From positions 4,616,280 to 4,680,279 of the forward strand of contig OY761159.2 in assembly GCA_963664395.2 (NCBI GenBank): a DNA stretch of 64,000 bases, given 5' to 3'. Of the stretch, positions 3,345 to 60,882 are shown one piece after another. The notes below the pieces were generated by a model that was not told the DNA's origin, did not search any database, and was given only the letters and a program-made list of their open reading frames with translations. Position numbers and translations under genes: made by a program. Positions within the stretch are counted from its first letter, which is position 1; each line of letters opens with the position of its first letter. This DNA is from Candidatus Binatia bacterium (GTDB lineage: Bacteria > Desulfobacterota > Binatia > Bin18).

Positions 3345-3366
3345 GCGTGACCATCACGCTGGGGCT

Positions 3367-7761: not shown

Positions 7762-9165
7762 ATGACACGACGCCTTCTTATCGGCCTTATTCTCAGCCTC
7801 GGTTTTGCGCCGTCTCTCTCAGCCGCACCGCTGGGCATCCGGACCGTGCTCGATAACGACGCAACGCTGCTCGTTGCCGAGCGCCCCGGTCTGCCCATGG
7901 TCGTGATGAGCATGATCCTCAAAACCGGCGCCGCGGTTGACCCGCAGGGTAAACAGGGACTGGCAAATCTCACCGCCGAGTTACTCACGCGCGGGACCAA
8001 GAATTACTCCGCCCAGGCGCTGGCCGAAGAACTCGACTTCCTAGGGACGTCATTATCGGTTGAAGCCGGTAACGATGCCACGACCATCGGCCTGACGACC
8101 TTGACCAAGAATCTGGACCGGTCTTTCGCCCTCTTGGCCGAAGTCGTCCTGTCCCCAACCTTCCCCCAGGACGAATTCGAGCGCATCCGCAAGGAGATTG
8201 AGGGCCGTCTGCACAGCAACCGGGAAGACCCCGGCTGGGTCGCCGGCAAAGCCTTCAAAGAGCATCTCTACCCTCAGCATCCCTACGGACGGTTGATCTC
8301 GGGCCAGGCAGAGACGCTGGCGCGCATTACGCCTGCTGATATCAGGCAGTTCCACGCCACCTATTATCGTCCCAATAACGCCATCATCGCCGTTGCCGGA
8401 GAAATCACCCAGGACCAGATCGGCTCCCTCCTCGCTGCTCATTTTGCCGACTGGCAAGCGGCCGACCTGCCCGATTTCTCGTGGCCGGACCCACCCGAGC
8501 GAGCGGCCCAACAGGTCAACCTGAATAAAGAAGTCACCCAGGCCAACATCATGATCGGCCATTCGGGCATCGCCCGCTCGCACCCTGATTATTACGCCGT
8601 TCTGATCATGAATCACATTCTCGGGGGCGGGGGATTTGGCTCGCGACTCATGGATCGCATTCGAGAAGAGCAAGGCTATGCCTACTCTATCGGCAGCTAT
8701 TTCTCCGCTCGTAAACATCCGGGCCCTTTCACGGTTGCGTTGCAAACCAAGAATGAAAGCGCCCAACAAGCCATTGATGAAACCCTGGCCGTTATTCGGC
8801 ACTTCAGGGAAGAAGGGGCAACCGAAGAGGAACTCGAAGCGGCAAAAGCCTATCTCGTCAACAGCTTCCCGCTCCGGCTCATTTCCAACGCGGATGTCGC
8901 CGGAATGCTCCCGGTGCTCGAGTTCTATGAACTGGGACTCGATTACCCGGACCGCTACCCAGGCATTATTGGGGCGGTGACGCTTGAGCAGGTGAGAGCG
9001 GCGGCAAAGAACCACCTCCACCCGGATCAATTCGTTCAGGTCGTGGTCGCCGATCTGGAAAAGGCTGGCCTGGAACGGGCCGAGACTAGCGCCGATGTGT
9101 CCGGTGGGAACACGGAACACACGGCAACGGAAGAGCCAAACCCCGCCGCGACAATGGCGGAGTGA
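7762..9165 (+). CDS. M16 family peptidase, non-catalytic-type subunit
   Basis: 467 aa with the M16 fold pattern, but the HxxEH position reads LTAELLTRGT. Signal peptide ...SLSAAP. Confidence 0.88.
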   Translation: MTRRLLIGLILSLGFAPSLSAAPLGIRTVLDNDATLLVAERPGLPMVVMSMILKTGAAVDPQGKQGLANLTAELLTRGTKNYSAQALAEELDFLGTSLSVEAGNDATTIGLTTLTKNLDRSFALLAEVVLSPTFPQDEFERIRKEIEGRLHSNREDPGWVAGKAFKEHLYPQHPYGRLISGQAETLARITPADIRQFHATYYRPNNAIIAVAGEITQDQIGSLLAAHFADWQAADLPDFSWPDPPERAAQQVNLNKEVTQANIMIGHSGIARSHPDYYAVLIMNHILGGGGFGSRLMDRIREEQGYAYSIGSYFSARKHPGPFTVALQTKNESAQQAIDETLAVIRHFREEGATEEELEAAKAYLVNSFPLRLISNADVAGMLPVLEFYELGLDYPDRYPGIIGAVTLEQVRAAAKNHLHPDQFVQVVVADLEKAGLERAETSADVSGGNTEHTATEEPNPAATMAE

Positions 9166-9195
9166 GGCGCCGCCATATATGTGGAGTGAGCGTTT

Positions 9196-10188
9196 ATGCT
9201 TCTCCCCGGCAAACTCCCAGCTGATTTCCTCAAAACCTGCATCACACATGCGGGGACGGAAGACCCGCGTGTTCTCATCGGCCCACGTTTTGGCGAGGAC
9301 TGCGCCGTTATCGATATTGGCGCTCAGTATCTTGTTGTCAAAACCGACCCGGTGACATTCACAGCGGCAGATGTGGGTTGGTACGCCGTGCATATCAATG
9401 CCAACGATGTTGCGACCATGGGCGCACAGCCGGCCTGGTTTCAAACCTGTCTCCTGTTTCCGCCTGATACTCCAGAAGAAAGCGTCAGACAGGTCTTTGC
9501 CCAGATTGACTCTACCTGTCGAGATCTGGGCATTACTGTCACCGGTGGGCACACGGAAGTGACCGCGTCAGTCACTCAGCCAGTCGTGGTCGGCAATATG
9601 ACAGGCGTGGTCGCCAAAGACCGATTAGTGACCACACAGGGAGTCCGGGCCGGAGACTTGGTCGTAATGACCAAGACAGCCGGTCTTGAGGGGACCAGCA
9701 TTGTGTTCACCGAGAAGCGCAAAGAACTGGAGGACATTCTTGTACCGGAGCTTCAGGACGAGGCGCAGAATATCCGCACAACATGGGGAATCTCCATTGT
9801 CAAAGAAGCCCTGTTAGCCGCACAATACGGCGCTACAGCCATGCACGACCCCACAGAAGGCGGCGTGGCCATGGGCCTGTACGAGCTGACCGCGGTCAGC
9901 GACCTCGGCATGCAGCTCGACCTCGACGCCATTCCCACCCTGCCCTCCACCCGAGCCATATGTGAGCACTTCAGTATCAATCCACTCGGATTGATTAGTT
10001 CCGGCACCCTGCTCCTGACCATTGCTGCTGACAATTGGCCGAGTCTTGAAAATATTTTTCAGTTAGCAAACATTCCCGCTCAGGTCATTGGGAGCGTCAC
10101 GCCGGAGACCGGCATTCAGGCCCGGCGGAACGGCCAGGAGGTGCGGTTTGTCTATAGTGAAAGGGATGAGCTGCTGAAGGTTCTTTGA
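9196..10188 (+). CDS. AIR synthase-related (PurM/HypE/ThiL superfamily) protein
   Basis: 330 aa. GEDCAVID...VKTDP, GGHTE and the C-terminal domain are typical of the PurM-like fold. Confidence 0.8.
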   Translation: MLLPGKLPADFLKTCITHAGTEDPRVLIGPRFGEDCAVIDIGAQYLVVKTDPVTFTAADVGWYAVHINANDVATMGAQPAWFQTCLLFPPDTPEESVRQVFAQIDSTCRDLGITVTGGHTEVTASVTQPVVVGNMTGVVAKDRLVTTQGVRAGDLVVMTKTAGLEGTSIVFTEKRKELEDILVPELQDEAQNIRTTWGISIVKEALLAAQYGATAMHDPTEGGVAMGLYELTAVSDLGMQLDLDAIPTLPSTRAICEHFSINPLGLISSGTLLLTIAADNWPSLENIFQLANIPAQVIGSVTPETGIQARRNGQEVRFVYSERDELLKVL

Positions 10189-28916: not shown

Positions 28917-31301
28917 ATGAAAGAAGCGGCGGTGGCGGAAAAAATTCTTACCACAGACCTCGGGGTTGAAGCGGAAGCCCGCTATCTCAATTACGCGCTC
29001 AGTGTTATTACCTCACGGGCCCTGCCCGATATTCGTGACGGTCTCAAGCCGGTACAGCGGCGGCTGCTGTACGCCATGCACCAGAACCTGCATCTTGGTG
29101 GCGATGCCCGGCCCCGTAAATCGGCAGCTGTTGTGGGTGAAGTCCTGGGCAAATACCATCCGCATGGAGACCAGGCCGCCTACGATGCCATGGTTCGCTT
29201 GGCGCAGCCGTTCTCGCTCCGCTATCCGCTGGTTCAGGGGGAAGGAAATTTCGGCTCGCTCGATGGCGATAGTGCGGCGGCCATGCGCTACACCGAGGCC
29301 AAGCTCGCGCCCTTATCCGAAGAGCTGTTCCGTGACCTGCGCGGCGCGACCATTCCGTACCGTCCCAACTATGACGCCACTCTGAATGAGCCGGTCGTCC
29401 TCCCGTCCGGTATTCCCCAACTCCTGCTCAACGGAGCGAGCGGCATTGCCGTTGGTATGGCTACCAGTATTCCGCCGCATAACTTTACAGAAGTAATCAA
29501 GGCCCTGCTGGCAATGATTGATGACCCGACACTGACCAGCGCTGGATTGCTCAAACATATCAAAGGCCCGGACTTTCCAACCGGCGGTGAGATACTTACC
29601 AGTAAGCACGAGCTGCGAGATATCTACGAAAAGGGCCAAGGGACGATCAAACTGCGCGGAGAATGGAAGGTTGAGGACCTGCCCCGCGGGAAGCGTCAGG
29701 TCATCGTGACCTCCCTGCCGTATACCGTCAACAAGGCCCAATTGGTGGAAAAGATCGCCGAATTCGTCAGCAGCCGAAAAATCCCGCAAGTCGTCGATGT
29801 CCGGGACGAATCGACAGACGATATTCGTATTGTCCTTGAGCTCAAAGGCAACACCTCAGATGAGCTCGCCATGGCGTATTTGTGTCGCCATACGACGCTG
29901 CAAACGTCCTTTTCCGTCAACCTGACCTGTCTGATTCCGACCGACAACCCGGAAGTCGGGCAACCCCGGCGCGCCACGTTGTCCGACCTGTGCCGACATT
30001 TCCTGGACTTCCGTTTTGAGGTGGTCACCAAACGCTTTGAACATGAGTTGAGCGAGTTGGAAGCCCGCCTGCATATCCTTGCCGGGCTGGCCCTGATTGC
30101 CGACCGGCTCGACACCGTCATCCGCCTCATCCGGAACGCGACCTCGCGCAAAGACGCGCGTGAAAAACTTCGGCAGAGTTTTCAATTGGACGAGACGCAG
30201 GCCGACGCCATCCTCGATATTCGCCTCTACCAGCTCGCCCGCTTGGAAGTCGAAAAAATTCAGACCGAACGCCAGGAGAAAGAAACCCGCGCCCAGGAGT
30301 TGCGCCGGTTGTTGAGCAGTGAAAGCCAGCGCTGGACGATCATACGGGACGAACTGGAAGCGCTGGGCAAGCAGTATGGCGACCGACGCCGGACGGCCCT
30401 GCGCGCGGGCGAACAGCTCAATTACGACCCCGACGCCTATATCGTCCATGAGGAAGCTACGGTCGTCCTCAGCCGCGACGGCTGGATTAAGCGGGTCAGA
30501 GAACTCAAGGACCCAACCAGTACCCGGCTGCGTGAAGGTGACGACATCAAGGCCGTTCTTCAGGGCACAACCCGTGATCGCCTGGCCGTTTTCACCAACC
30601 GGGGTATGCTCTACGTCATACGCATTAACACCGTGACGGCGACCACCGGCTATGGAGAACCCATCCAGACCCTGTTCAATTTTCAGGATGGCGAACAGAT
30701 TGTGACAGTCCGCCTTATCCGCGACCGCCCGTCGGGAAGCCCGGCCCAAGAGAACGGGACGGGCGCGGCCAAGCCGGGCCAGACCGACCTATTTGCGCCC
30801 CCGGCTTCCCCCCAGGTGGCTGGCGAGCGGGAACCGGCCCTGCTCCTGGCGACGGCCAAGGGCCTGGGGTTTCGTTTTGAGCCCAGTGTCGAAGAAACCA
30901 CCCGTAACGGGAGAAAAATTGCCCGTTTGGCCGCAGACGACGCCGTTATTACCGTCCAACCGGTGCGCGGCGGCCGGACGGTGTGTGCCACCGCGTCCGG
31001 GTATATCTTGGCCTTTCCAACCCAAGATATTGCCGAATTATCCGGAGCCGGACGCGGAGTTATTCTCATGCGCCTGGAGCAAGACGACCGTTTGGTTGGG
31101 GCGGTCACAAACGAACCCGGCGCGGGTGTGACCGTTATCAATACAGACGGGAAAGAGCGGAAAATCCCACTGCGGGAGATTCCGTTAGGCAAACGGGCCG
31201 GAAAGGGCCGGCGAGTAGTCAAACGATCGGTGCTGGTGGGGATGCAGCAAAACGGCGCCCGGCGCGGCGCAAATGGTGGAGTGGAGGAGGCTGAGGCGTA
31301 A
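28917..31301 (+). CDS. Type IIA topoisomerase subunit A (GyrA/ParC family; ParC-like because no GyrA box was seen)
   Basis: [25 protein letters not shown] (catalytic Tyr), and a beta-pinwheel C-terminal domain without a QRRGGKG-type box. Confidence 0.92.
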
Positions 31302-37638: not shown

Positions 37639-38115
37639 CTAATTGCCGTACTTCTGATCAATAAAATCCCTGATGACTGCCGGTGGGGCTCCTGATTCAA
37701 ATAACGCCTGCGCATCCTGCGCTTCGCTTAAACAGTGCATTCAGCCAGCGGCATGATCGTCCACAAAGCAATCAAGTAGGTTTCCGTGTCCCATGGACTG
37801 ATCACAGCCACAGTAGCAGTGCAGGCCCGCCAACACGTCCGGGATGGTTTGGGCGATGATATAGCCCTCTTTGACTGCTCCGCCGAAGAGGGCTGGAGAT
37901 AATGTGTCAGGCAGACTGGTATGGGTTGGAAGTTTTATGACTGACTTTTTCTTTTCTTGCTCAGGCGGGGTTTCGGGAGCCGTGCTCGTCTCGGCCAAGA
38001 CAAGAGCAGGAGAGAACTCTGGCACATTGAGCCCAGAACCAATCCCCAAGGCGAGCATAAGGGCGACTATCAGATGGATGACCATGCGTACGATCTCCTT
38101 TCGGTATGTGAACAC
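37639..38115 (-). CDS. PCYCGC-motif family protein, candidate selenoprotein (in-frame TGA at 37741..37743 read as Sec)
   Basis: The ORF 37741..38115 (signal/TM segment, HCYCGC motif, ...DCFVDDHAAG) stops at a TGA. A 33-codon ORF (MHCLSEAQDAQALFESGAPPAVIRDFIDQKYGN) continues directly in the same frame. Together they reproduce the family layout, with the TGA at the first Cys of a CxxC. If the TGA is a true stop, the CDS is 37741..38115. Confidence 0.5.
37702..37730 (-). promoter_or_regulatory. Candidate bacterial SECIS-like hairpin
   Basis: The RNA reads UAAGCG-AA-GCGCA-GGA-UGCGC-AGG-CGUUA. It starts 10 nt after the UGA. It has a 5-bp apical stem, a GGA loop and an outer stem of about 5 bp with an internal loop. 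Confidence 0.4.
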
Positions 38116-38208: not shown

Positions 38209-38895
38209 CTACAGCACATCAAGGTGCAGGGGCTGGCGCTGGGAAAATGTATAGAGTTGGGCCGGTCGGTGAGCGCCCCGCCTTGTTTTAGAGAGCGGCT
38301 TGAGCAAACCGGAGCTGATAATTTTTCGCCTGAAATTCCGTCGATCCAACTGACGATCGAGAATGATTTCGTAGACCTCCTGCAGTTCCGCAACCGTAAA
38401 TTCCCGCGGCAGGAGACTGTAGACAATATTCGCGTAGCCCAGTTTGCTTTGGAGCCGTTGCAGCGCATATTCGGCTATCGCATTATGATCATAGGCAAGC
38501 GCGGGTAAGTCGTGCACCGGGAACCAATCAATGTCCGCATATTTTTCCCCGAGATGGGGAGTCTGCGCAAGCGGCGGGACGAGCGCAAAATAAGAGACCG
38601 ACACGGTTCGCGCGGATGGGTCTCGGGTAGCACTTCCAAACGTATACAGTTGCTCCAGATAGAGGTCCCGTACTCCTGTTTTTTCATACAGCTCACGCTG
38701 GGCCGCATCGTCGAGCGATTCGTCCAACTGCACAAGGCCACCGGGGAAAGCCCAGCGACCCGCGAATCCACCTTTCTTAATCTTCACCAAAAGAGCGCGT
38801 AAGGCACCCTGAGTGATGGTAAAGAGCACCGAGTCAACGGCTACACGCGGATGAATTTGTTTTGCGGTACGCTGGCCTCCGTTTGATCTGCCCAC
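38209..38895 (-). CDS. nrtR: NrtR-type Nudix-related transcriptional regulator (Nudix domain plus C-terminal winged helix)
   Basis: Nudix box region FPGGLVQLDESLDDAAQRELYEKTGV, and a C-terminal DRRNFRRKI...L motif typical of NrtR. Lies 9 nt downstream of nadA. Confidence 0.8.
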   Translation of the reverse strand: MGRSNGGQRTAKQIHPRVAVDSVLFTITQGALRALLVKIKKGGFAGRWAFPGGLVQLDESLDDAAQRELYEKTGVRDLYLEQLYTFGSATRDPSARTVSVSYFALVPPLAQTPHLGEKYADIDWFPVHDLPALAYDHNAIAEYALQRLQSKLGYANIVYSLLPREFTVAELQEVYEIILDRQLDRRNFRRKIISSGLLKPLSKTRRGAHRPAQLYTFSQRQPLHLDVL

Positions 38896-38904
38896 AGGAG
38901 CACA

Positions 38905-39918
38905 CTATGCATTGAGTTCAAGCATGCGGTCAAGTGAACGCTGGGCACCGATACGCGTCTCTTCCGGCAGCGTAATCTCAAAACGTCCTTCACGCAGAGA
39001 GTCACGCACCCCTTCGAGCGTAATCATCTTCATGTAGGCACACAATTTACAGCTCTTGTAGAATTTCTTTTCTGGGACTTCCAACAGCAAGCGGTCCGAC
39101 AGGCCGCACTCCGTGACGATCAGAAACTCTTGAGCCGGGCTTTCTTTGGCGTAGCGCATCATCGCACTCGTTGAGAGGACGGCATCGGCTAATGCGATCA
39201 CATCTTCCCGGCACTCGGGATGGACGAGCACTGACACCTGCGGGAGTTTGTCCCGTACCTCTTGAATCTGCTCCGGCGTGATCTGATGATGAACGTAGCA
39301 GTTGCCCTCCCACGCAATAATGTTCTTGTGGGTTTCGTTTTGGACATAGCGGGCCAAGTTCTCATCTGGCACAAAGAGGATGTTCTCCGTGTCGAGCGCC
39401 TCTACTACTTGGACCGCATTCGACGAGGTGCAACACACATCAGACTCGGCTTTGACATCCGCAGTCGTGTTGACGTAGCAGACCACTTGGAGATCGGGAT
39501 ACACTTTGCGTAGCTCTTCTTTCCGATCAGCCAAGGCATCCCCCGTAATACTCTCAGCCAGGGAGCAACCAGCCCGCAGGTCAGGGAGTAGTACTGTTCG
39601 CTCAGGATTCACGATCTTGGCGGTTTCGGCCATAAAGTGGACACCACAAAAGACAACAACCTCAGACTCAACCTGTTTTGACTGGCGGGCTAATTCGAGT
39701 GAATCGCCGATCACGTCAGCCACCTCAAAAATCTCCGGACGTTGGTAATTGTGGGCCAGGATGACGGCGTTATGCTGGTGCTTCAGCTTGTGAATCTCAT
39801 GAATCCAGTCTGCGTATTGGGTGCAAGCGTCCAGCGTATAGCCGCTGTCGAGTTGAGCCAGGTGCTCGTAGAGTTGGTGCGGAGTCTTTTCTTGAGGGCT
39901 GGTCAATCCGTTGTGCAT
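38905..39918 (-). CDS. nadA: Quinolinate synthase
   Basis: 337 aa: ILAHNYQ...VHFMAETAK...CSLA...VVCYVNT...HPEC. Confidence 0.96.
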   Translation of the reverse strand: MHNGLTSPQEKTPHQLYEHLAQLDSGYTLDACTQYADWIHEIHKLKHQHNAVILAHNYQRPEIFEVADVIGDSLELARQSKQVESEVVVFCGVHFMAETAKIVNPERTVLLPDLRAGCSLAESITGDALADRKEELRKVYPDLQVVCYVNTTADVKAESDVCCTSSNAVQVVEALDTENILFVPDENLARYVQNETHKNIIAWEGNCYVHHQITPEQIQEVRDKLPQVSVLVHPECREDVIALADAVLSTSAMMRYAKESPAQEFLIVTECGLSDRLLLEVPEKKFYKSCKLCAYMKMITLEGVRDSLREGRFEITLPEETRIGAQRSLDRMLELNA

Positions 39919-50906: not shown

Positions 50907-52175
50907 ATGTTGTACCTATCGCATTGCTGTTCGATTTTCTTTCTGTATGCGGCCACTATCGGTATCTTCAGCGCTTGCAGCACCAGGCAAAGGGACACCC
51001 GCCTCGGCACGGAGCCCTTTCCGGTTGTAGCCCAGCCGGGCGCTCCATCTTCACCGCCGGCGCAACCGGAAATGAGCCTGACATCCGACCCGGAGGCAGA
51101 ACTGGCCTGGGAATTTTTGGCGGGCGTCGATGAGACAGGCATCATCCCTCATCCTCCAGTGGCCCCGCCCGTTCAGCCTGAGCCCACCGCCTCTCAGCCG
51201 GATGAAGAACTCAATGAAGAACTCAATGAGGAACTCAATGAGGAACTCCCCCCCCTCCTAGCGCTCGGTCCCCCTCAAGAAGAAAAAGCCTCGGGCTGGC
51301 TGGCTTGGGTGCCGGACTTGTCTCCGGACGAGTCCGGCACAAATGGAAATGCGCAGTACCGGACCGAGCAAGACCTCCTCAAGGTTGTCGCCGAGTTTCA
51401 GCGCGTGGCGGCAAAAGATACCTACCGCTTTCCTTTACCCAAAGATGTGACCGGAGCCAATGTGCATAAGGCGACACTCACCCGCATCCATGATTATGAA
51501 ACCAAACATCCGGGTGCCTATTCCGAGATTATCGCCTTCACCCGAGGGCGGGCCTATGAAGGGCTGCACGCCTATGAACGAGCCCTGGCCGAGTACCAAC
51601 GGGTAGCCCAAGGCAAAAGCCGACTCAAACACGAGGCCCGCCAAGCAGTCGAAGCGCTCACCGCCTTTCAGGCCCTCGCGCAACAGGTACCGACAGCCAC
51701 AACCGTGGGTGAGTATGTTCAGGCGCTTGACGAACACGGGCAGCGCTGGAGGGGCTTAGCCCAGCAGTATCAGAACACGCCCTATAGCGCCCTGGCGCGC
51801 GAAGAAGAGGAACGTCTTGACCAGGCGAAAATCGCCTTCTTTGCAATCAACCGCTACCGGATTGAGGATGGTAACGAGAGCGTTCTCTTGGCCTACCAAC
51901 AGTTACTTGATAAACATCGGGAGAGCAAAAACCGCTATCGGTATCGGATGGAGCTAGGGGATTTCTATGTTACGCTCGCCCATGAGTATATTGCCCAGAA
52001 CGATCCTGAAAGCTTACGTTTCGATTCCGACATCTTTGAAGCATTGGGACAAGCGGCGCTCCACCATTACGCGAGGGTTGCCCAAGAGGACGGCATCATG
52101 GAAAAACTTGAAGCCAAGGGCAAACTCGAAGCGCTTGAAGCCTATATGGCCAAAGTCGGACGTTTAGGACGTTAA
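50907..52175 (+). CDS. Hypothetical lipoprotein, helical/TPR-like, with an (EELN)4 repeat
   Basis: N-terminal ...IGIFSAC lipobox-like cysteine, a Pro-rich linker, and a helical C-terminal 300 aa. No family recognised. Confidence 0.55.
   Translation: MLYLSHCCSIFFLYAATIGIFSACSTRQRDTRLGTEPFPVVAQPGAPSSPPAQPEMSLTSDPEAELAWEFLAGVDETGIIPHPPVAPPVQPEPTASQPDEELNEELNEELNEELPPLLALGPPQEEKASGWLAWVPDLSPDESGTNGNAQYRTEQDLLKVVAEFQRVAAKDTYRFPLPKDVTGANVHKATLTRIHDYETKHPGAYSEIIAFTRGRAYEGLHAYERALAEYQRVAQGKSRLKHEARQAVEALTAFQALAQQVPTATTVGEYVQALDEHGQRWRGLAQQYQNTPYSALAREEEERLDQAKIAFFAINRYRIEDGNESVLLAYQQLLDKHRESKNRYRYRMELGDFYVTLAHEYIAQNDPESLRFDSDIFEALGQAALHHYARVAQEDGIMEKLEAKGKLEALEAYMAKVGRLGR
51204..51248 (+). repeat. 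12-bp in-frame tandem repeat (GAAGAACTCAAT-like) x3.75
   Basis: Encodes EELNEELNEELNEEL. Read directly. Confidence 0.9.
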
Positions 52176-52196
52176 GCCGTGCAGAAAGAAAACGGC

Positions 52197-54236
52197 ATGT
52201 GGTATCGTTTCATCCCGCTGCTCCTGTGTTTCCAGCTCCTGCCTGCATCCCCACTGCACGCTCGGGATTTCGCAGATCCGCTAGCCCGGCGCGTGACTGA
52301 GTTTTTGCCGGCCTATACCCCCTTTGTGCCACCGCTGCCTCCGGAGCGATATTTTCCGGATGAGGTCGGAGAGTACGTTGCCGACGCGATTATTGATGGC
52401 TACCTCCAAGACCCGTCAGCATTACGAGGCAGGATAGCGCAACTGGAGCGGCAGGATGCGCAACTCTCAGCGCAAGGAGATGAAGCAACCGATGTCATTC
52501 CCCTGGTGTATGCCCTGCTGTATCGGTCAATAGAGCACAATGGGCAGGAGTATCTCCCACTTGTTGAACTGAACGCGACGCCGGATGAAATTCTCTCTCA
52601 GGCGGACCAACTCTACGCCTCGGAAAAGCGCTACCGTATGGCCCGGCTGTTCAATTGGGTACTCTCGACCTTTGACGTGGCACGGCTGTTTCTCGGCGCG
52701 CCGGCCAGTCCCAGTCCATACGCGGCTCAAGGCGTAGTCTCTTCAGTCGGCCAACAGTCCGGGCCAAGTCCACGAGAGCGAAAGGCATTGGCCCTGTATC
52801 GTCTTTTCCTCGAACAAGCCCCGAATGATCCGCGTGTCCCGGAAGTCGAAACAAAAATGGAGGCCCTCGACACGAAACGAAAAAAGGCTGCCGTCCAGGC
52901 TGAATTGGCCCGGGCTGAGCAAGCATTCTCTGAAGAAGACTATTGGAAGGCCAATTTTTATTATCAACTCACCCTTCTTGTTGATGAAAACGCCGAGGAA
53001 GCCAAAGCCGGCATCCAACAAGTCGAAGCCCGCCTGCAACACTATGCCGCTCTCAACGCGCACGACCTACCCCAAGACCCACTGGCTGGTGTGAAACAGG
53101 CGGAGTGGGAGCACAGTAAGGAAACCTTGACCTATATGCTGCCAGGGAGCGGGTTTGTCAAAGACAATATTGTTGTGGCCGGCCTCCAGATCGGTACGGA
53201 GGGGCTTGTCGGCGCGGCCACCTTTGGGGGGCTGACCATGATCCAGACCTTGGGGAAACTGTGGCACGTCATGACCGGACGGGCCGTCTCCCGGCAAGGG
53301 ATTATTACTGAGGGCGAAAAATACTTGCAGCAGACCCCCTCAGAGGAGCGCGCTCCGGAGATCTACCCCATCCTGGCCAAAGCCTATGCGAAGGAAGGCA
53401 AGGTTGAGAAAGCCGTTCGGTATTATGCCTTAGCCGGCATGGAAGAAGAGATTCCCACGCTCCAGGAAAACGCGGCAGAAGCGCTGCTCGACCAAGCCAA
53501 CGCAAGTACGCATCAAACGGAGAAACAAGCCTACCTGCGTCGCCTGCTGGAGAGCTATCCCAAGACTGATGCAGCAAAGAAAGCGGCTGAAGAATTTCAG
53601 AAGGGCAGGCGGCCTGAAAACCAGGGGCTACAGCTCAGTAAGATGTTCTTGCGCGACAATCCGGACCTGTTTGGCACTCAGGGCCTTGGACTCAAAAGGG
53701 AACTGTATGATGGCAACTGGCGTAATATCGAGCTCACGGACGACGGGATCATCCTCTCCCCCCATGGCGACGTGACACTGCTGTTAGAAAGCGACGATGG
53801 TCCTCGAACCAAGGTATACAGTGTGCCAACGGCGGCGTGGCAACAGTTCTGGCGCACGTTCCGAGAAAAGGGCTATGAAGACGCTCTCTATCGCGGAGAC
53901 CGAAAAATTGCCAAGCTCGTCCAGGGGGCGGAGCCAGCAGACATCAAACTCAAGAGCGAGTTTGAAAAAAATGATGAAGACGGCTGGCGCGTCCTGCCTC
54001 ATCTGACCGGGAGTATGGGAGAAGGGTTTGACGTACGAGGGACTCTACCCAAAGACATCCTCGGTACCCGCCTTGCGTTTGGGAGAGACCGGCTCAGTAG
54101 CTATATTGGCATTGAAGTTCCCATGCCGCTCGTACCGGTTGATTTTCTCCTCCTCGGTCGCGACGGCCTGCCCTCGCTCTACCCACGCATTCGTCTTCCG
54201 GATCAGCATATCAAGGACGAGGAGTTGTACCGGTAG
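52197..54236 (+). CDS. Hypothetical secreted/membrane-associated protein (about 680 aa)
   Basis: Signal peptide MWYRFIPLLLCFQLLPASPLHA (an alternative GTG lies at 52179, 3 nt after the upstream stop). Central hydrophobic segment IVVAGLQIGTEGLVGAATFGGLTMI. No family recognised. Confidence 0.6.
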   Translation: MWYRFIPLLLCFQLLPASPLHARDFADPLARRVTEFLPAYTPFVPPLPPERYFPDEVGEYVADAIIDGYLQDPSALRGRIAQLERQDAQLSAQGDEATDVIPLVYALLYRSIEHNGQEYLPLVELNATPDEILSQADQLYASEKRYRMARLFNWVLSTFDVARLFLGAPASPSPYAAQGVVSSVGQQSGPSPRERKALALYRLFLEQAPNDPRVPEVETKMEALDTKRKKAAVQAELARAEQAFSEEDYWKANFYYQLTLLVDENAEEAKAGIQQVEARLQHYAALNAHDLPQDPLAGVKQAEWEHSKETLTYMLPGSGFVKDNIVVAGLQIGTEGLVGAATFGGLTMIQTLGKLWHVMTGRAVSRQGIITEGEKYLQQTPSEERAPEIYPILAKAYAKEGKVEKAVRYYALAGMEEEIPTLQENAAEALLDQANASTHQTEKQAYLRRLLESYPKTDAAKKAAEEFQKGRRPENQGLQLSKMFLRDNPDLFGTQGLGLKRELYDGNWRNIELTDDGIILSPHGDVTLLLESDDGPRTKVYSVPTAAWQQFWRTFREKGYEDALYRGDRKIAKLVQGAEPADIKLKSEFEKNDEDGWRVLPHLTGSMGEGFDVRGTLPKDILGTRLAFGRDRLSSYIGIEVPMPLVPVDFLLLGRDGLPSLYPRIRLPDQHIKDEELYR

Positions 54237-54274: not shown

Positions 54275-55831
54275 TTATGCATTCGCGGCGTAGAAGATAA
54301 ATTCCACGTCCCCGATACGGACGTTCATGCCATCTCTGAGAAGATTTTCGGAAACCTTTTTCCCATTAATATGGATTCCGTTTTTGCTTTGCAAATCGAG
54401 CAGCACATAGCCCTGTTTGACTTTTTTTATTCGAGCATGTTCACGCGATATGGATGAGTGCAGAATAATTGCCTCACATTCTTCTCCACGCCCAAATGTC
54501 ATCCCATCACGGGAAAACGCAATTTCGCGGGGCACTTCTTCAAATGGACTTTGGCGAACAAGGCGGGCGTACGGAGCGGATGTCCCGGGCACGACAGCAG
54601 CTGAGCTTTGATTCATGGAACTGGGGCCACCGGTTGCCGTCTTCAGCATACTCAGCACTTCGGCCGGAAGCTCAGGAATCTGATTGAGGCGAACACGCGC
54701 CAGTAAAATCAGTCCGCCAGCGGCTAGGAGTAGAATCACCCCATTCCACACCCCATAGACAACGACGGCTTGCGGGGTGGTTGCGCCAGGTCCTGAGCTG
54801 GTCGTAACGACTCGTGCGCCACCAATACCACGCACCTGGTAGGAAATACGCGCCTCCCCTTCCCCGTTCGGATGCTGAATGGTAAGCGCGACCTCACGTT
54901 CTGCCCCATCCTCGACCGGGCGTGGGCTGGTATACGTCAGGAAGTATTGCGACGCGAGCGAGCGGCCGATCTCACTAATCAGCTCAGGAAATCGTTCACC
55001 CTCACTGACAATATTATAGTGTCGCCCAGCGCTCTCCTTTGCGATCATATGCAGGTCGGGAGCCATAAAGGGCGGCGGAGAGATAGCAAAGACATTCAGA
55101 TTCGCCTTTTTAATCTCTGCCAATACCTCCGCGCCCGACACTTGCGTGACTTCCCGACCGTAGAGATTATTTTTTTCCGAGCCATCCCCGCGCGTATGAT
55201 TCGGTGCGTCGGTAATCAGGATGAGGACAGCCTGGGCGTCAGGCCGAAACGGAAAGCTGCAGGCCAGTAACATCGCATCGAGTGAGTTCTCCGGAATATC
55301 GCCTCCGCCTGCCGGACGCAGAGCGCCAACCCAGCTTTTGAACTCCCGGGCGCTCCGGGTAAACGCCCGCTCGTCCCGAATAACATAATCTTCAAAGGTC
55401 ACTAAACCTAAACGATAATCCCGGTTGGCCTTGGACAGGCGGTCGGCAAAATCGATGGTGGCTTCTTTCATGCCGTCAATGAACGGCCCCATGCTTTCCG
55501 TTACATCGAAGACTACTACGATATCGACAGGCCGGCCCTGCTGTTCCCCTCGGAAATCAATGATCTTGGCGTCCGTACCGTCCTCTTGCACTGTCACGTG
55601 CTCTGGCGTGAGTTGTCCGACCGGCTGCCCACGTAAATCAGTCGCATTGAAATACAGACCAACGGCACCGCCGTTAGTAAAATTCTCCAATTGGGGATTG
55701 GTGACAGATACGACCACTGAATCTGACGCAGAGACACTCTTCGTAAAAAACGAGAAGAAGGCCAGGCAATATATGAGCACCAGCACAGCGCTGGGATAGC
55801 TCTGCTGAGCGAGACGGTCATCCAGTCTCAC
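54275..55831 (-). CDS. Membrane protein: N-terminal anchor, vWA domain, TM helix, C-terminal FHA domain
   Basis: MIDAS VVVFDVTES, TM VWNGVILLLAAGGLILLARV, and FHA ...MTFGRGEECEAIILHSSISREHARIKK...NGIHINGKKV. GTG start at 55831, just after the upstream stop. The alternative ATG at 55906 would overlap the upstream gene. Confidence 0.8.
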   Translation of the reverse strand: MRLDDRLAQQSYPSAVLVLIYCLAFFSFFTKSVSASDSVVVSVTNPQLENFTNGGAVGLYFNATDLRGQPVGQLTPEHVTVQEDGTDAKIIDFRGEQQGRPVDIVVVFDVTESMGPFIDGMKEATIDFADRLSKANRDYRLGLVTFEDYVIRDERAFTRSAREFKSWVGALRPAGGGDIPENSLDAMLLACSFPFRPDAQAVLILITDAPNHTRGDGSEKNNLYGREVTQVSGAEVLAEIKKANLNVFAISPPPFMAPDLHMIAKESAGRHYNIVSEGERFPELISEIGRSLASQYFLTYTSPRPVEDGAEREVALTIQHPNGEGEARISYQVRGIGGARVVTTSSGPGATTPQAVVVYGVWNGVILLLAAGGLILLARVRLNQIPELPAEVLSMLKTATGGPSSMNQSSAAVVPGTSAPYARLVRQSPFEEVPREIAFSRDGMTFGRGEECEAIILHSSISREHARIKKVKQGYVLLDLQSKNGIHINGKKVSENLLRDGMNVRIGDVEFIFYAANA

Positions 55832-55841
55832 GGCAATCCCC

Positions 55842-56774
55842 CTATTCCTTCCCTGCCCGCTCTCGAAAGAGGAGTAGAGTTCCACCGACTTCAATCCGAT
55901 CGCCATTTTTAAGCTGGACTGATTGGGCAATCGGGGTCCGGTTGACGCTGACCTGCCCTTCGTTTTTGGCAAGCACAAATGTATGCTTGTGTTTCTCGAC
56001 CACGGCATGAAGATTGGCAATGGAACGGTCGCCAAACAGACCGACATCGCTTTCTTCGGCTCGGCCTATTGTGGTTTTGGGCTTAGTCAGATGATATTCA
56101 CGGCCTTCACGGACATTGCGGCTCTGCGAGCGAATCACCATAAACCAGCCGCGCTTAAACATCTCACTGACCAAGCCTATCCAGAGACCGATCATCGCTC
56201 CCAACAGGGCAAATGCAACCCCACGGCCGGCGGTCTGCGATAGCAGGGTGGTGACAATCTGAAAGAGCGCTCCGCCGATCGCCCCGCCGATGCATCCGCC
56301 AATCGCCCCATTGCGTAAACGGACCAGCGACTGGCCGACCCAGCCCGCTCCGAGCCCAACTGCGAGTCCAAAGAGTCCCCAGCCTATAGTGCGTCCGCCA
56401 AGACCACCAAACAGGCCAAACACCAGCTCTCCCATCAGAAGACCAACAGCACCACCCGCCAGACCGGCCAGCCCACCCAGCTTCACGCCTTGCCACGTCT
56501 TGTTCTTATGACCCGCACTGAGTCCTTCAATGGCACCGATGAAAGCGCCCACACAAATTCCAGTCACGGCGCCCAAGGCAATGGCCCGGAGATGGATATT
56601 TCCAACCGCGGCCAAAGGGTCAGCCGCGGCCCATCCAGCGATGCCACCCAGGAGCCCGGCCCCGCTATAGAGGACAAGTCGTTCGCGTGAAAGTTCCATA
56701 CTACTCCGCTGCTCAATGCACCACGTGTATGTACAGACAGCCGTCATGATACGGCCTAGAGTTGCAGTGACCAA
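55842..56774 (-). CDS. Polytopic glycine-zipper membrane protein with a C-terminal FHA domain
   Basis: About six Gly-rich hydrophobic helices (GGLAGLAGGAVGLLMGELVFGLFGGLGG...), then the FHA region TTIGRAEESDVGLFGDRSIANLHAVV...NRTPI. The start is uncertain (ATGs at 56774, 56747 and 56699). Confidence 0.75.
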   Translation of the reverse strand: MVTATLGRIMTAVCTYTWCIEQRSSMELSRERLVLYSGAGLLGGIAGWAAADPLAAVGNIHLRAIALGAVTGICVGAFIGAIEGLSAGHKNKTWQGVKLGGLAGLAGGAVGLLMGELVFGLFGGLGGRTIGWGLFGLAVGLGAGWVGQSLVRLRNGAIGGCIGGAIGGALFQIVTTLLSQTAGRGVAFALLGAMIGLWIGLVSEMFKRGWFMVIRSQSRNVREGREYHLTKPKTTIGRAEESDVGLFGDRSIANLHAVVEKHKHTFVLAKNEGQVSVNRTPIAQSVQLKNGDRIEVGGTLLLFRERAGKE

Positions 56775-59125
56775 TGTCCGCTCACGCTCTCGGACGACCC
56801 GACACTATACGTTCCGCTGAGTCGGTTTTCTTCACGCCAGCCGCGGAAATGATAGTCGCGATTGCCAATCCGACTTTGAAAGTCAATGTTATTATCCTGT
56901 AGGCTTCCTTCCAGAGAGGCGGCGCCGAAACCGGTCGCGTGGATCACCAAGTTACCACGTAACACCCCGTTACTGTGCGGTTGAAAATGCACCTCAAGAG
57001 GAACCTCACGCTCAGGACCCAGCCCGAGGATGCTCCCTTGGTGCGAGTTGAGGATATGGGCCAAGTCCCGATCATCGGTTACGGTAAATTTCTCGGGCGA
57101 GAGCGGGTAGCCGTTGACATAAAAGTCAACCTTGTAATCGCCGGGGGAAAAGGCGCTCCCACTGGCATTGCCGATTCTGGCAGTAAACGTCACCTTCTCT
57201 GTTGTATCCGAGACTTCTTTTCCCTCTTCGACCGTCCCGAGAATCTGGCCGTTGGGGGCATAATAGGTTGCGGTGACCCGGTGGTAAGAAGGCAACAGGT
57301 CATGGAGCTGGTTCTGAAAATCCGCCTCCCAGGCCACGAACCGGAGTTTGGATGCGCCAAACGAAGATGCGGATTGAGAGAGGCGGCTGCCATCTTTCGC
57401 GGTATTGAAAAAGCGGACGGAGACCAGAGAAAGCGGCTCCTTGCTCCGTTCCTGGATGAGGGCCAGCCGTTTTTCCTCTGCCGCACGCCCGGCGCGCTCT
57501 TCCTCCGGTGTCGGTCCAATGACTGCCGGGACATCAGCCCTACCAGCTACACCACCTTCTTCAGCATCGGCCTTTGCGACCTTGACCGGATCGGCTTCAA
57601 TCCGGACTGTTTGACTGGCCAGCTTGGCATCCCCGAAATAGAGCTCAAGCTGGTAATCGCCTGTGGCCCGCTCTTTGAGCCCCTCAAGCAGCGTCACGCC
57701 CCGGAGTTCAAGCTGTTCTTCTTCGGGCCGCACAAACCGGCCGGCTTCGCTTTTCCCAGCCAGCCCCCCCTCAGGATCGAAAAAGCGGCCCTCTATCCGA
57801 TAGTTCCCGCCTTCGACCCCGGACAACCTATTCTTCAGCACGGCTTCCCAGGTCAGGTATTGCACCTCACCAACTGTATAGCTTGCCTTGGCTTCCGACC
57901 GTGGCGTGCCGTCGCGCGAGGTATTCACTAGGCTGAGAGAAACGAGTTCGAGCGGATCGGCCCGTAGCGTGCGCAGGCGTTTCTCCCGCTCCCACGGCAA
58001 ATCCGCAACAAAAGCCCGGAACCCTGCACGCCGGGATTCCGGCAGCCAGGTTTCGAGCTGCTGCCAGGGAATCTTTTCTCCCAACTGCGCGATCGGATTA
58101 CCTTGCAGCAGTTCAGGGGAAGTCAACAGTCCATACGCTCCGCCAGTCATCAGCAGCAAAAAAACAAGGGCCGCAACCATACGCCCCCAGCGCCGTTTCT
58201 TTTGCGGCGGTGCGACGGTGAGGGGTTCCTCAACCGGCTCCGGCAAAGGCTCGAGAATCTGGGTCGCGGCTTGGGACGAGCTGGGAGATGGGGCCGCGCT
58301 CAGTCCGCGCCCATACAGAAACATGTCCTTAAACGCTTCCGCGCTCTTTGGCCGCTCTTCCGCTTTATACGCCAGGGTCTGGTCAATGGCTTGAGCCAGG
58401 AAGGGAGACGCGTCGGGCTTCTCCGAAAGCACCGGCGGACACGAGAACGGCGGATGTTTCTCGGGGTCACGGCCGGTCAGGATATAGTGCAGGGTTGCGG
58501 CCAGGCCATAAAGATCGGACCGTTCATCAACCTGTCCCGAGTATTGCTCGGGCGGGGCAAATCCGGGCGTGCCAATCAGGGTGGCTTTGCCTTGGGGAGA
58601 GAAAATTCTGGCAATGCCAAAGTCAATCAGCGTGATGCGCCCGTCCGGCCCGAGGATCACATTGCCCGGTTTCATGTCCCGATAGATGATGGGCGGAGAA
58701 AAGCCATGCAGATACGTCAGGACATCGCACAGTTCCCGGCCAATCTCGATGACCCGGCTCTCGGGGAGCCGACCGCCCAGTCCGGCGATTTCCTGCTCCA
58801 GATTGACCCCTTCGACAAAATCCATCACCAAATAATGGCAATTGCCTTCACCAAAGCGGTCAAAAATGGCGGGAATGGCCGGATGGGTGAGCTGGGCCAG
58901 CGTGTCAGCCTCGCGATGAAAATACTCGATTGCTTGGGCGCGCTCCTCGGGATTGGTGAACCGGTCAAAGATTTCTTTGATGGCGACACGCCGCTCGGCA
59001 AGACGCTGATCCTGGGCAATATAGACGACGCCCATACCACCGCCGGCCAGAAAGCGCTCGATCTGATAGCGCCCCGCCAGGGTCGTTCCAGGTTCAAGTT
59101 GACCGCTTTCGTTCCGCGACATCAA
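56756..59125 (-). CDS. Receptor Ser/Thr protein kinase (Hanks type) with one TM helix and a roughly 445-aa extracytoplasmic region
   Basis: AGGGMGVVY, VAIKEI, YRDMKPGN, DFGIA, GTPGFAPPE. TM VAALVFLLLMTGGAYGLL. Confidence 0.93.
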   Translation of the reverse strand: MMSRNESGQLEPGTTLAGRYQIERFLAGGGMGVVYIAQDQRLAERRVAIKEIFDRFTNPEERAQAIEYFHREADTLAQLTHPAIPAIFDRFGEGNCHYLVMDFVEGVNLEQEIAGLGGRLPESRVIEIGRELCDVLTYLHGFSPPIIYRDMKPGNVILGPDGRITLIDFGIARIFSPQGKATLIGTPGFAPPEQYSGQVDERSDLYGLAATLHYILTGRDPEKHPPFSCPPVLSEKPDASPFLAQAIDQTLAYKAEERPKSAEAFKDMFLYGRGLSAAPSPSSSQAATQILEPLPEPVEEPLTVAPPQKKRRWGRMVAALVFLLLMTGGAYGLLTSPELLQGNPIAQLGEKIPWQQLETWLPESRRAGFRAFVADLPWEREKRLRTLRADPLELVSLSLVNTSRDGTPRSEAKASYTVGEVQYLTWEAVLKNRLSGVEGGNYRIEGRFFDPEGGLAGKSEAGRFVRPEEEQLELRGVTLLEGLKERATGDYQLELYFGDAKLASQTVRIEADPVKVAKADAEEGGVAGRADVPAVIGPTPEEERAGRAAEEKRLALIQERSKEPLSLVSVRFFNTAKDGSRLSQSASSFGASKLRFVAWEADFQNQLHDLLPSYHRVTATYYAPNGQILGTVEEGKEVSDTTEKVTFTARIGNASGSAFSPGDYKVDFYVNGYPLSPEKFTVTDDRDLAHILNSHQGSILGLGPEREVPLEVHFQPHSNGVLRGNLVIHATGFGAASLEGSLQDNNIDFQSRIGNRDYHFRGWREENRLSGTYSVGSSESVSGHWSLQL

Positions 59126-59136
59126 CTAGCGCCTCA

Positions 59137-60882
59137 CTACTCGTGAAAGACAACGATCACTGAGGTATTATCGCTGCCGCCACCCGTATTTGCCGCAACG
59201 GTCAACTCCAAGGCCGCCTCGGACGGAGTACGGTGGCGACTCAAGATATCAGCAATCGCCGGATCAAGGACATGGCTGGTCAACCCATCGCTGCACAGGA
59301 GGAGTCGGACCCCTCGCTTGAGTGGCCGCGAGAGCGTATCAACCACAACATTTTCCTTGCTCCCCAAAGACCGAATCAGGACGTTACGGTGCTCGTGGGT
59401 CAACGCCTCTTCTTCCGTCAATTGGCCGATCTCGACCAGACGGGCGACCAAGGAATGATCGTGCGAGAGCTGCCGCAGTTCCCCATTTTCCAGCAGGTAG
59501 ACCCGGCTGTCCCCGACCCACGCCACCGTCAGTTGTCCGGCCCGGACCAGCGCAGCAACAATCGTTGCTCCCAGGCCGGCAGATTCTGGATGATCTTTCC
59601 CGTATTGGACAATTTTTGTATTGGCCGCCTCGACCGACTCACGTAAATGGGTCTCCCAGGCTGCCGCATCAAATCCCTCAACCCCCTTTTGCTGTCCAGT
59701 GGAGGCCCCCTCTCTCCTCAGCCCTCTCCCGCCAGAGGGGAGGGAAACGGTGGCTTCTTCAACATGCTGGGCCACAGTCCGAATGGCAATCTGGCTGGCG
59801 ACCTCACCGGCTTCGGCTCCGCCCATACCGTCTGAAACGATATAGAGTCCATTAAAATCATCGCCCTCTATGCTGCCTTGACCCACCTCTTTGACAAGAA
59901 CGGCATCTTCATTATGGTCGCGTACCTGTCCGACATCGGTCCGCCAGGCCGAGCGAATATGCACCGACTGACTCAGAGCGAGCAAGTCTTGTTTCAGGGC
60001 TGGCAGGTTCGGATAGCGCTCCCCGACCTCAAAGGCTAACGCTCTTCTTAAAACGCGCTCAAAATCGGGCGTCAGGACCTTCTCAGGATAGAATACTGGT
60101 GGCTCAGGCTGAACCGCCCAGCCTTCAATGGGTAAACGGCGCCCCACGAGAACGGCATACAGGCATGCGCCCAGAGCAAACACATCAGCAGCTTCGTGTA
60201 ACACTTGGGACTTATATGCCTCAGGCGCAGCATACCCATCCGTCAAAAAGGGACTCTCCTCAAGCGCGTCTTTCAGGCGTATGGCGTCAAAGTGGGTGAG
60301 GTGCAGACGGCCGGTCTTGTCGAGTATGATATTTTCCGGAGAAAGTTCAACACACAAGAACCCATGCCGGTGCAAAGCACTCACGGCCTGGCACAGCTGC
60401 ACGCCCCAGCCGGACGCCTCCCGCTCCGACGTCCGGCCCATGCGGCTACTCAGAGGGATACCGGACTGAGTCGGCGTAATGAGGTAGACCCGGCCATCAC
60501 GTTCCAGACTTTCCTGCGGGAGGATGAGAGCCGGGTGGTGAATCGCGGCAAGCTGCTCGGATAGCTCAAACGCACCACCCGCGTCGGTCTGGTCACTTAA
60601 TCGTTCAGCTATAAGATAGGTCTGTCCGGCGTCAGTCTGACGAACCGCCTGGTAGCGATTTTCCTGTCCGGTCGAGAGGATGGATGTGAGGCGATAGGTA
60701 TCAGCGAGGATTGTGCCTGGCGTCAGTGGTTCAAAGAGGGAGACCGAAACGCCCCCTTCTTCAAGCGATACGCCACAGGCAGTACAAAAAATTTCTCCAA
60801 GCACATTGGCTTGTCCGCACTCAGCACAAACAAGGCTCTCCTCAATGTCTATAGGCTCGGTCATCAGAGGCGCAGAACCCAT
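59137..60882 (-). CDS. Zinc-ribbon / degenerate kinase-like domain / PP2C phosphatase fusion protein
   Basis: CAECG...CTACG. The kinase-like region has VAIK->YQAVR, HRD->CVELSPEN and DFG->HFD. The PP2C region has VRDHNEDA, SDGMGGAEAGEVAS, LCSDGL and GGSDNTSVIVV. Confidence 0.85.
   Translation of the reverse strand: MGSAPLMTEPIDIEESLVCAECGQANVLGEIFCTACGVSLEEGGVSVSLFEPLTPGTILADTYRLTSILSTGQENRYQAVRQTDAGQTYLIAERLSDQTDAGGAFELSEQLAAIHHPALILPQESLERDGRVYLITPTQSGIPLSSRMGRTSEREASGWGVQLCQAVSALHRHGFLCVELSPENIILDKTGRLHLTHFDAIRLKDALEESPFLTDGYAAPEAYKSQVLHEAADVFALGACLYAVLVGRRLPIEGWAVQPEPPVFYPEKVLTPDFERVLRRALAFEVGERYPNLPALKQDLLALSQSVHIRSAWRTDVGQVRDHNEDAVLVKEVGQGSIEGDDFNGLYIVSDGMGGAEAGEVASQIAIRTVAQHVEEATVSLPSGGRGLRREGASTGQQKGVEGFDAAAWETHLRESVEAANTKIVQYGKDHPESAGLGATIVAALVRAGQLTVAWVGDSRVYLLENGELRQLSHDHSLVARLVEIGQLTEEEALTHEHRNVLIRSLGSKENVVVDTLSRPLKRGVRLLLCSDGLTSHVLDPAIADILSRHRTPSEAALELTVAANTGGGSDNTSVIVVFHE

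Follow-up and report, generated by a model that had tools for sequence, protein, structure and literature searches.

The locus considered here lies on the minus strand of a 64-kb stretch of DNA from Candidatus Binatia, the whole of which was analysed and is termed the window below. An ORF at 37741..38115 ends in ...HCYCGCDQSMGHGNLLDCFVDDHAAG-TGA, with the TGA at 37741..37743, and the codon right after it opens, in the same frame, a run of 33 codons reading MHCLSEAQDAQALFESGAPPAVIRDFIDQKYGN-TAG (37639..37740, minus strand). The original prediction had described this arrangement of an ORF closed by TGA and continued by a second short ORF, and inspection of the sequence and its frame confirmed it, with a refinement of the start. 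The likely start codon is the ATG at 38085 (MVIHL...), rather than the GTG at 38115 with which the mechanically called ORF begins, because it is preceded by a putative Shine-Dalgarno sequence AAGGAG (38095..38100, minus strand, 9 nt upstream of the ATG) and because all orthologues begin with MVIH, MVIR or MIIR. The complete gene of the predicted CYCXC-family selenoprotein would thus span 37639..38085 on the minus strand, with 148 codons and a TAG stop (37639..37641), the predicted selenocysteine (Sec) codon being codon 115.

The predicted protein displays a signal-peptide-like N-terminus, a low-complexity linker and a domain of about 90 residues. The N-terminal hydrophobic segment (37993..38085, minus strand) was delineated by eye, lacks a lipobox Cys and would probably be cleaved between MVIHLIVALMLALGIGSGLNVPEFSPALVLA and ETS; a hydrophobic N-terminus is common to all homologues. 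The domain bears a CYCGCD motif (Cys90, Cys92, Cys94 and Asp95; 37801..37818, minus strand), whose columns are invariant or nearly invariant in our alignment (A1), followed by the in-frame TGA at residue 115 (37741..37743, minus strand), identified as a predicted Sec codon by codon counts and by alignment with Cys. The TGA forms the first position of a UxxC motif (U-M-H-C; 37732..37743, minus strand), the second Cys of which is invariant in both the Sec and the Cys forms. The 33 post-UGA codons and the TAG (37639..37740, minus strand) correspond, as indicated by the match to PF13798 and by dN/dS, to the C-terminal third of the CYCXC domain.

Sequence profile analysis of the read-through product, scored with Cys substituted for the stop, recovered a significant match to the Pfam family PF13798 (PCYCGC; 56 bits against a gathering threshold of 25), in which profile positions 52-141 are aligned without a break across the TGA junction, as would be anticipated if the two ORFs were a single member of this family. 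The 33-residue tail by itself matches positions 111-141 of the same profile (E = 0.012), and the shortened ORF ending at the TGA scores 34.4 bits, which is still above 25. The joined product also matches NF041379 of NCBIfam (short name OS_HP4_CYCXC, "CYCXC family (seleno)protein"), a curated equivalog model (cutoff 90 bits) through which NCBI gives such proteins their name automatically, at 109 bits (E = 9.3e-32, profile 2-89 of 90), and has all the features of its members, namely the score, the CYCGC at residues 90-94 and Sec/Cys at the first position of the UxxC/CxxC; the shortened ORF falls below this cutoff with 73 bits. The layout that the original prediction had given for the PCYCGC proteins proved right, in that the full-length homologues P0043, P0044, P0105 and P0107, which are few, possess a Cys at the TGA column followed by xxC. 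Its supposition that no Sec-containing member of this family had been described did not hold, given the name of NF041379 and the listing of a UxxC member in two reviews of prokaryotic selenoproteomes (PMC9312934, PMC13188914). In these the family is entered as OS_HP4/CYCXC, with PF13798, UxxC and one Sec, and both cite for OS_HP4 the study of the Olavius algarvensis symbionts by Zhang and Gladyshev in 2007 (PMC1976440), the main text of which names OS_HP1-3 only.

Thus, the CYCXC/OS_HP4 (PCYCGC) proteins already figure in catalogues of selenoprotein families, with both their Sec position and the recoding mechanism, and the locus is an ordinary further example of them. The window protein has in common with NF041379 and OS_HP4 the CYCxC motif, the single Sec and its position in the UxxC, without any essential difference, except that its host is Candidatus Binatia, a lineage without mention in that literature. 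With the members of PF13798 it shares the conserved Cys pattern CYCGC...DC...CxxC, the CYCGCD motif being a defining one of both PF13798 and NF041379. The Bacillales members of PF13798 contain Cys and are lipoproteins that possess a lipobox Cys (PMC13068155), whereas the window protein would have Sec where they have the first Cys of the CxxC, and its N-terminus is plainly signal-peptide-like and lacks a lipobox.

A protein search recovered about 60 homologues of 111-114 or 135 residues, all of which end in ...DDHAAG, ...DDHGAG or ...DDHGAT, that is, at the same alignment column. The relatives of the window are Candidatus Binatia MAGs, and in tblastn searches residues 1-148 were aligned across the stop in Binatia genomes. 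For a comparison at the level of DNA, loci were drawn from 80 species-representative genomes and three near-identical assemblies, and 71 loci could be classified at the TGA column. The codon is TGA in 33 of these 71 (the window included), belonging to about 30 species-level genomes, and TGC or TGT in the other 38, with TAA or TAG in none (0/71). Homologue alignments thus place a conserved Cys at this codon, as the original prediction had held in assigning the TGA to the first Cys of the CxxC, and both states of the codon occur among orthologues. A column with Cys in all non-TGA homologues, at which TGA is the only stop codon used, is the classical signature of Sec/Cys exchange.

When a neighbour-joining tree was built from the domain, the TGA forms, including that of the window, fell into one large clade that is sister to the Cys-form Binatia, with a single TGC form (L084) nested within it. 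Two further TGA forms (L050 and L052), from Thermodesulfobacteriota/'delta proteobacterium' MAGs, define a second, separate Sec clade. The Sec form is ancestral to a broad clade of Candidatus Binatia. The nested TGC form (L084:97-516, encoding P0043) is 95% identical to the Sec form L033 and has TGC where the latter has TGA, a difference of one base at the critical codon; its SECIS core GCGCTGGATGCGC is intact. Either Sec was converted to Cys very recently in this form, or its contig, which is short (865 nt), contains an error. Several peculiarities of individual relatives were also observed. L050 and L052 (match at 3001-3351) have a variant motif, CFCECE, in place of CYCGCD. Binatia-type CYCXC selenoprotein genes, with 49-64% identity to the window protein, were found in MAGs labelled 'Klebsiella pneumoniae' or 'uncultured Enterobacteriaceae' (L023, L026, L027 and L032), and the taxonomy assigned to these bins looks mistaken. 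P0062 (118 residues), from a near-identical genome, is a frameshifted product that is identical over about 50 residues and then out of frame, probably on account of a long-read indel error. For P0056 no gene on record was found with exactly its product.

Immediately downstream of the TGA, RNAfold predicts a SECIS-like stem-loop within the coding sequence (37702..37730, minus strand), in which an apical loop GGA tops an upper stem GCGCA/UGCGC, itself separated by an internal loop from a lower stem AGCG/CGUU. This is the structure described in the original prediction, at a spacing in the bSECIS range. The MFE is -8.8 kcal/mol for this segment and -10.7 kcal/mol for an extended one, and 23 nt separate the UGA from the first G of the loop, which is the 24th nucleotide downstream. 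The published bSECIS model (PMC13188914, Fig. 2 legend; four criteria in all) specifies an apical loop of 3-9 nt (3 nt, GGA, or 5 nt, AGGAU, in the window) with G in the first two loop positions (loop GGA), an upper stem of 4-16 bp (5 bp), a spacing of 16-37 nt from the UGA (23 nt) and an MFE of at most -7.5 kcal/mol (-8.6 to -10.7 kcal/mol), and the window hairpin agrees with the model on every count. Like bacterial SECIS elements (the bSECIS model, of the E. coli fdhF type), it is a stem-loop in the coding sequence directly 3' of the UGA with GG in a small apical loop; it differs from them in the absence of sequence similarity to any Rfam model and in the very small size of its loop, 3-nt (or 5-nt), and is here considered a putative SelB target.

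The evidence for a function of this hairpin comes from comparative data and not from the single sequence, because the folding energy of the latter could not be distinguished from that of shuffled sequence (z = +1.0). The 13-nt core pattern with one mismatch would be expected 0.48 times per window; a motif scan found no other TGA-linked copy of the core in the window. The invariant core, GCGC-AGGAU-GCGC (37710..37722, minus strand), coincides with codons +7 to +11 after the TGA. Of the 32 Sec loci, 30 carry it and two have a G-U variant of it, and it occurs in 0/38 Cys loci; an alignment of 29 distinct sequences likewise showed no change in it other than a G-U variant in two. In all 32 Sec forms these codons read GCG-CWG-GAT-GCG with zero synonymous diversity, and the flanking codons vary by 0.5-1.7 bits, whereas in the Cys forms the same codons show a synonymous entropy of 0.98-1.49 bits (1.28 and 1.49 bits for the homologous Ala codons). 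Frozen codons (+5 and +7 to +11) account for 6/7 of the hairpin zone vs 2/25 among the remaining tail codons (Fisher p = 2e-4) and 2/44 in a background that includes upstream codons (Fisher p = 1e-5); the Cys forms have 0/7 (Fisher p = 0.005 vs the Sec forms). Likewise, dS is 0.61 in the SECIS part vs 1.03-1.13 elsewhere. Judged from these codon patterns, the hairpin is under RNA-level constraint only in the TGA forms. The sole Cys form retaining the hairpin is L084, which is uninformative as a natural Cys control because it is a one-base TGA-to-TGC revertant that still has it. In the second Sec clade (L050/L052) a hairpin of unrelated sequence (AAGAGG-AGGC-CCUCUU) has the same architecture, with 9 bp, a loop AGGC and GG 18-19 nt after the UGA.

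RNAalifold returned only the invariant 4-bp GCGC stem, with compensatory changes at 0/6 pairs; compensatory covariation is lacking because the upper stem never varies, and the lower stem is out of register across the clade. Neither gathering nor permissive Rfam scans matched a SECIS family. The only local match, a weak one of a 13-nt fragment to RsmY in Rfam (8.4 bits), is meaningless and arises because the core also fits perfectly the description of a GGA exposed in the short loop of a hairpin. A role of the core as a binding site of the CsrA/RsmA type is conceivable and unsupported, the constraint being confined to TGA-containing genes.

These observations make it very probable that the locus is one gene for a small, exported, Cys-rich protein of the CYCXC/OS_HP4 family in which the UGA at codon 115 is decoded as selenocysteine. 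The central claim of the original prediction, that this TGA is the Sec codon of a UxxC in a PCYCGC-family protein with a SECIS downstream, is supported by the Cys column, the use of TGA as its only stop, the conservation of the tail (see below), the fit to bSECIS and the constraint on the RNA in the TGA forms only. In mechanistic terms, the hairpin, with its GC-rich upper stem of 5 bp and with GG in an apical loop placed 23 nt beyond the UGA, would allow SelB to bring Sec in place of termination; translation would then run 33 codons further, to the TAG at 37639..37641, giving a product in which a helix begins with the U-x-x-C pair, next to a CYCGC...H...DC...H cluster.

The alternative that survives best is a read-through of the UGA without selenium, by which a near-cognate or suppressor tRNA would insert Trp, Cys or Gly, or the codon would have been reassigned in this lineage, with the hairpin only as a stimulator. 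It is consistent with the lack of selA, selB, selD and tRNA-Sec in the 64-kb window and in about 0.5 Mb of fetched loci, as searched with Pfam on 30 window ORFs and the Pfam families of the central 20 kb, and with ARAGORN on the window and the loci; moreover, the data bear on the translation of the tail and not on the identity of the inserted residue. The window is occupied by housekeeping genes (lon, pgk, a 2-oxoacid dehydrogenase E2/E3 pair, hemH, hemE, gyrA/B, mutS/L, nadA and fusA), and the evolutionary pattern suggests that the Sec machinery is encoded elsewhere in the genome of about 5 Mb. Against selenium-free read-through, TGA terminates about 10 other ORFs of the window, among them those for RNase HII and uroporphyrinogen decarboxylase (URO-D), both of which are aligned with their Pfam profiles through to the last positions, and in one orthologue the genuine stop is itself a TGA; UGA being an ordinary stop in these genes, there is no reassignment. 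The invariable Cys in the non-TGA homologues with the use of TGA only, the fit of the hairpin to a SelB-type bSECIS in both loop sequence and spacing, and the curation of the family as one of selenoproteins likewise speak against it, and we consider this alternative improbable in comparison with the insertion of Sec. Reports of experimental Se incorporation for a member of the family were not found in the literature consulted.

A second possibility is that the gene ends at the TGA, either as a nonsense-mutated pseudogene or as a naturally shortened gene, with the 33 codons as decaying remnants. This is how the gene callers of every public assembly treat it, giving products of 111-114 residues, and the shortened ORF does pass the Pfam cutoff (34 bits vs 25). 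However, it remains below that of NF041379 (73 < 90), the same TGA recurs in 33 loci from about 30 species-level genomes, and a Cys that is invariant throughout the family, the second of the CxxC pair, is encoded within the 33 codons. Moreover, among the 32 distinct Sec-form sequences the tail beyond the hairpin (codons +15 to +33) has a dN/dS of 0.155, compared with 0.117 for the upstream domain, and the same tail nucleotides give 1.45 and 1.95 in the two shifted frames (1 and 2, respectively). Frameshifts in the tail are absent from all 32 sequences, and a true stop, mostly TAG, is conserved at +34 in 26 of them. By these measures the 33-codon tail is under in-frame purifying selection, which answers in the affirmative the question of whether it is conserved, and a gene decayed or curtailed at the TGA is very unlikely.

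Equally slight is the chance of two genes, in which the upstream ORF would end at the TGA and a peptide of 33 residues would be initiated at an adjacent ATG by termination-reinitiation. An ATG does follow the TGA in the window and altogether in 21 of the 32 distinct sequences; in the remaining 11 the codon is CCG, AAC, GGT or GAC and the tail is equally conserved, so that it cannot be a separately initiated peptide. Furthermore, the Cys-form homologues are single polypeptides and the Pfam profile is unbroken over the junction. Finally, an error of sequencing or assembly that turned a TGC/TGT into the TGA is scarcely credible, even though TGA and TGC are one base apart and the close relative L084 has TGC, since an identical TGA is found in 33 independent assemblies, of differing projects and technologies, down to about 50% protein identity (the exclusion resting on these assemblies and not on reads).

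For the domain, an AlphaFold2 model of the Cys homologue P0043 shows a small all-helical fold, with a pLDDT of 94-98 over most of residues 50-139, preceded by an N-terminal helix and then a disordered linker, and with the CxxC at the N-terminal end of a helix (residues 105-119). A PDB sequence search returned no match at E <= 10, and Foldseek found no significant fold match for the model in the PDB. The best-probability Foldseek match was the N-terminal domain of CcmH (PDB 2kw0; probability 0.54, TM 0.55 on the target, E = 2.2, 14% identity), a periplasmic helical CxxC thiol-disulfide oxidoreductase; given this E-value and the lack of sequence similarity, membership in the CcmH-like oxidoreductases was rejected. 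The two are analogous only, as small, exported, all-helical proteins with a redox pair of the CxxC type, and the CYCGC/His cluster of the CYCXC protein has no counterpart in CcmH. The most likely role of the protein would be that of an extracytoplasmic redox-active selenol/thiol centre, or of a metal-binding one, beside a Cys3-His2-Asp cluster. No function of the CYCXC family was found in the literature consulted.

The genes for quinolinate synthase (nadA) and an nrtR-like NUDIX regulator (window 38209..39918, minus strand) precede the CYCXC gene in an order that is kept on one strand in about 30 Binatia-type genomes (L004-L049). This order accompanies both the Sec and the Cys forms, within Binatia only, and the neighbours in other lineages differ (an M13 peptidase, EcsC and a DedA/VTT protein); it may be plain synteny, with no functional link evident. 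Elsewhere in the window, three large ORFs (422, 685 and 499 residues; 50907..54236, plus strand, and 8053..9552, minus strand) gave no Pfam match at E <= 1e-5, and those of 422 and 685 residues are adjacent to each other and adjoin genes for an FHA/VWA protein and two Ser/Thr kinases, one of them PP2C-fused (54275..60882). A tRNA-Gly(TCC) called by ARAGORN at 30020..30092 (minus strand), within the coding region of gyrA (ORF 28917..31301, plus strand), is absent from the Rfam gathering scan and is probably a false positive. Among 54 greedily selected window ORFs TGA is the rarest stop (11, with 25 TAG and 18 TAA); such a high share of TAG is unusual at a genomic G+C content of 56%.

The value of the locus lies mainly in annotation. 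It is a textbook selenoprotein gene split by standard gene callers, the public copies found being unnamed "hypothetical protein" entries of 111-114 residues, from which the redox pair is missing along with the whole C-terminal third of the domain. The locus opens no new question and gives no strong clue to the biochemical function of the family; its slight novelty lies in having Binatia as the host lineage, a literature search on Binatota/Binatia and selenocysteine having found nothing. Models of the bacterial SECIS could be refined with the roughly 30 orthologous pairs of TGA and SECIS, together with the second, independent Sec clade and a single fresh revertant from Sec to Cys. More tentatively, a whole clade of Binatia, an uncultured lineage that is widespread in soils and sediments, might depend on selenium for an exported CYCXC protein, in which a new helical fold would unite the U-x-x-C and the CYCGC/His cluster in a selenol-based redox or metal centre, maybe analogous to CcmH or linked to nadA-nrtR, though as a whole we regard this scenario as rather doubtful. 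Candidatus Binatia would, at any rate, join the lineages with the Sec form of the CYCXC family.
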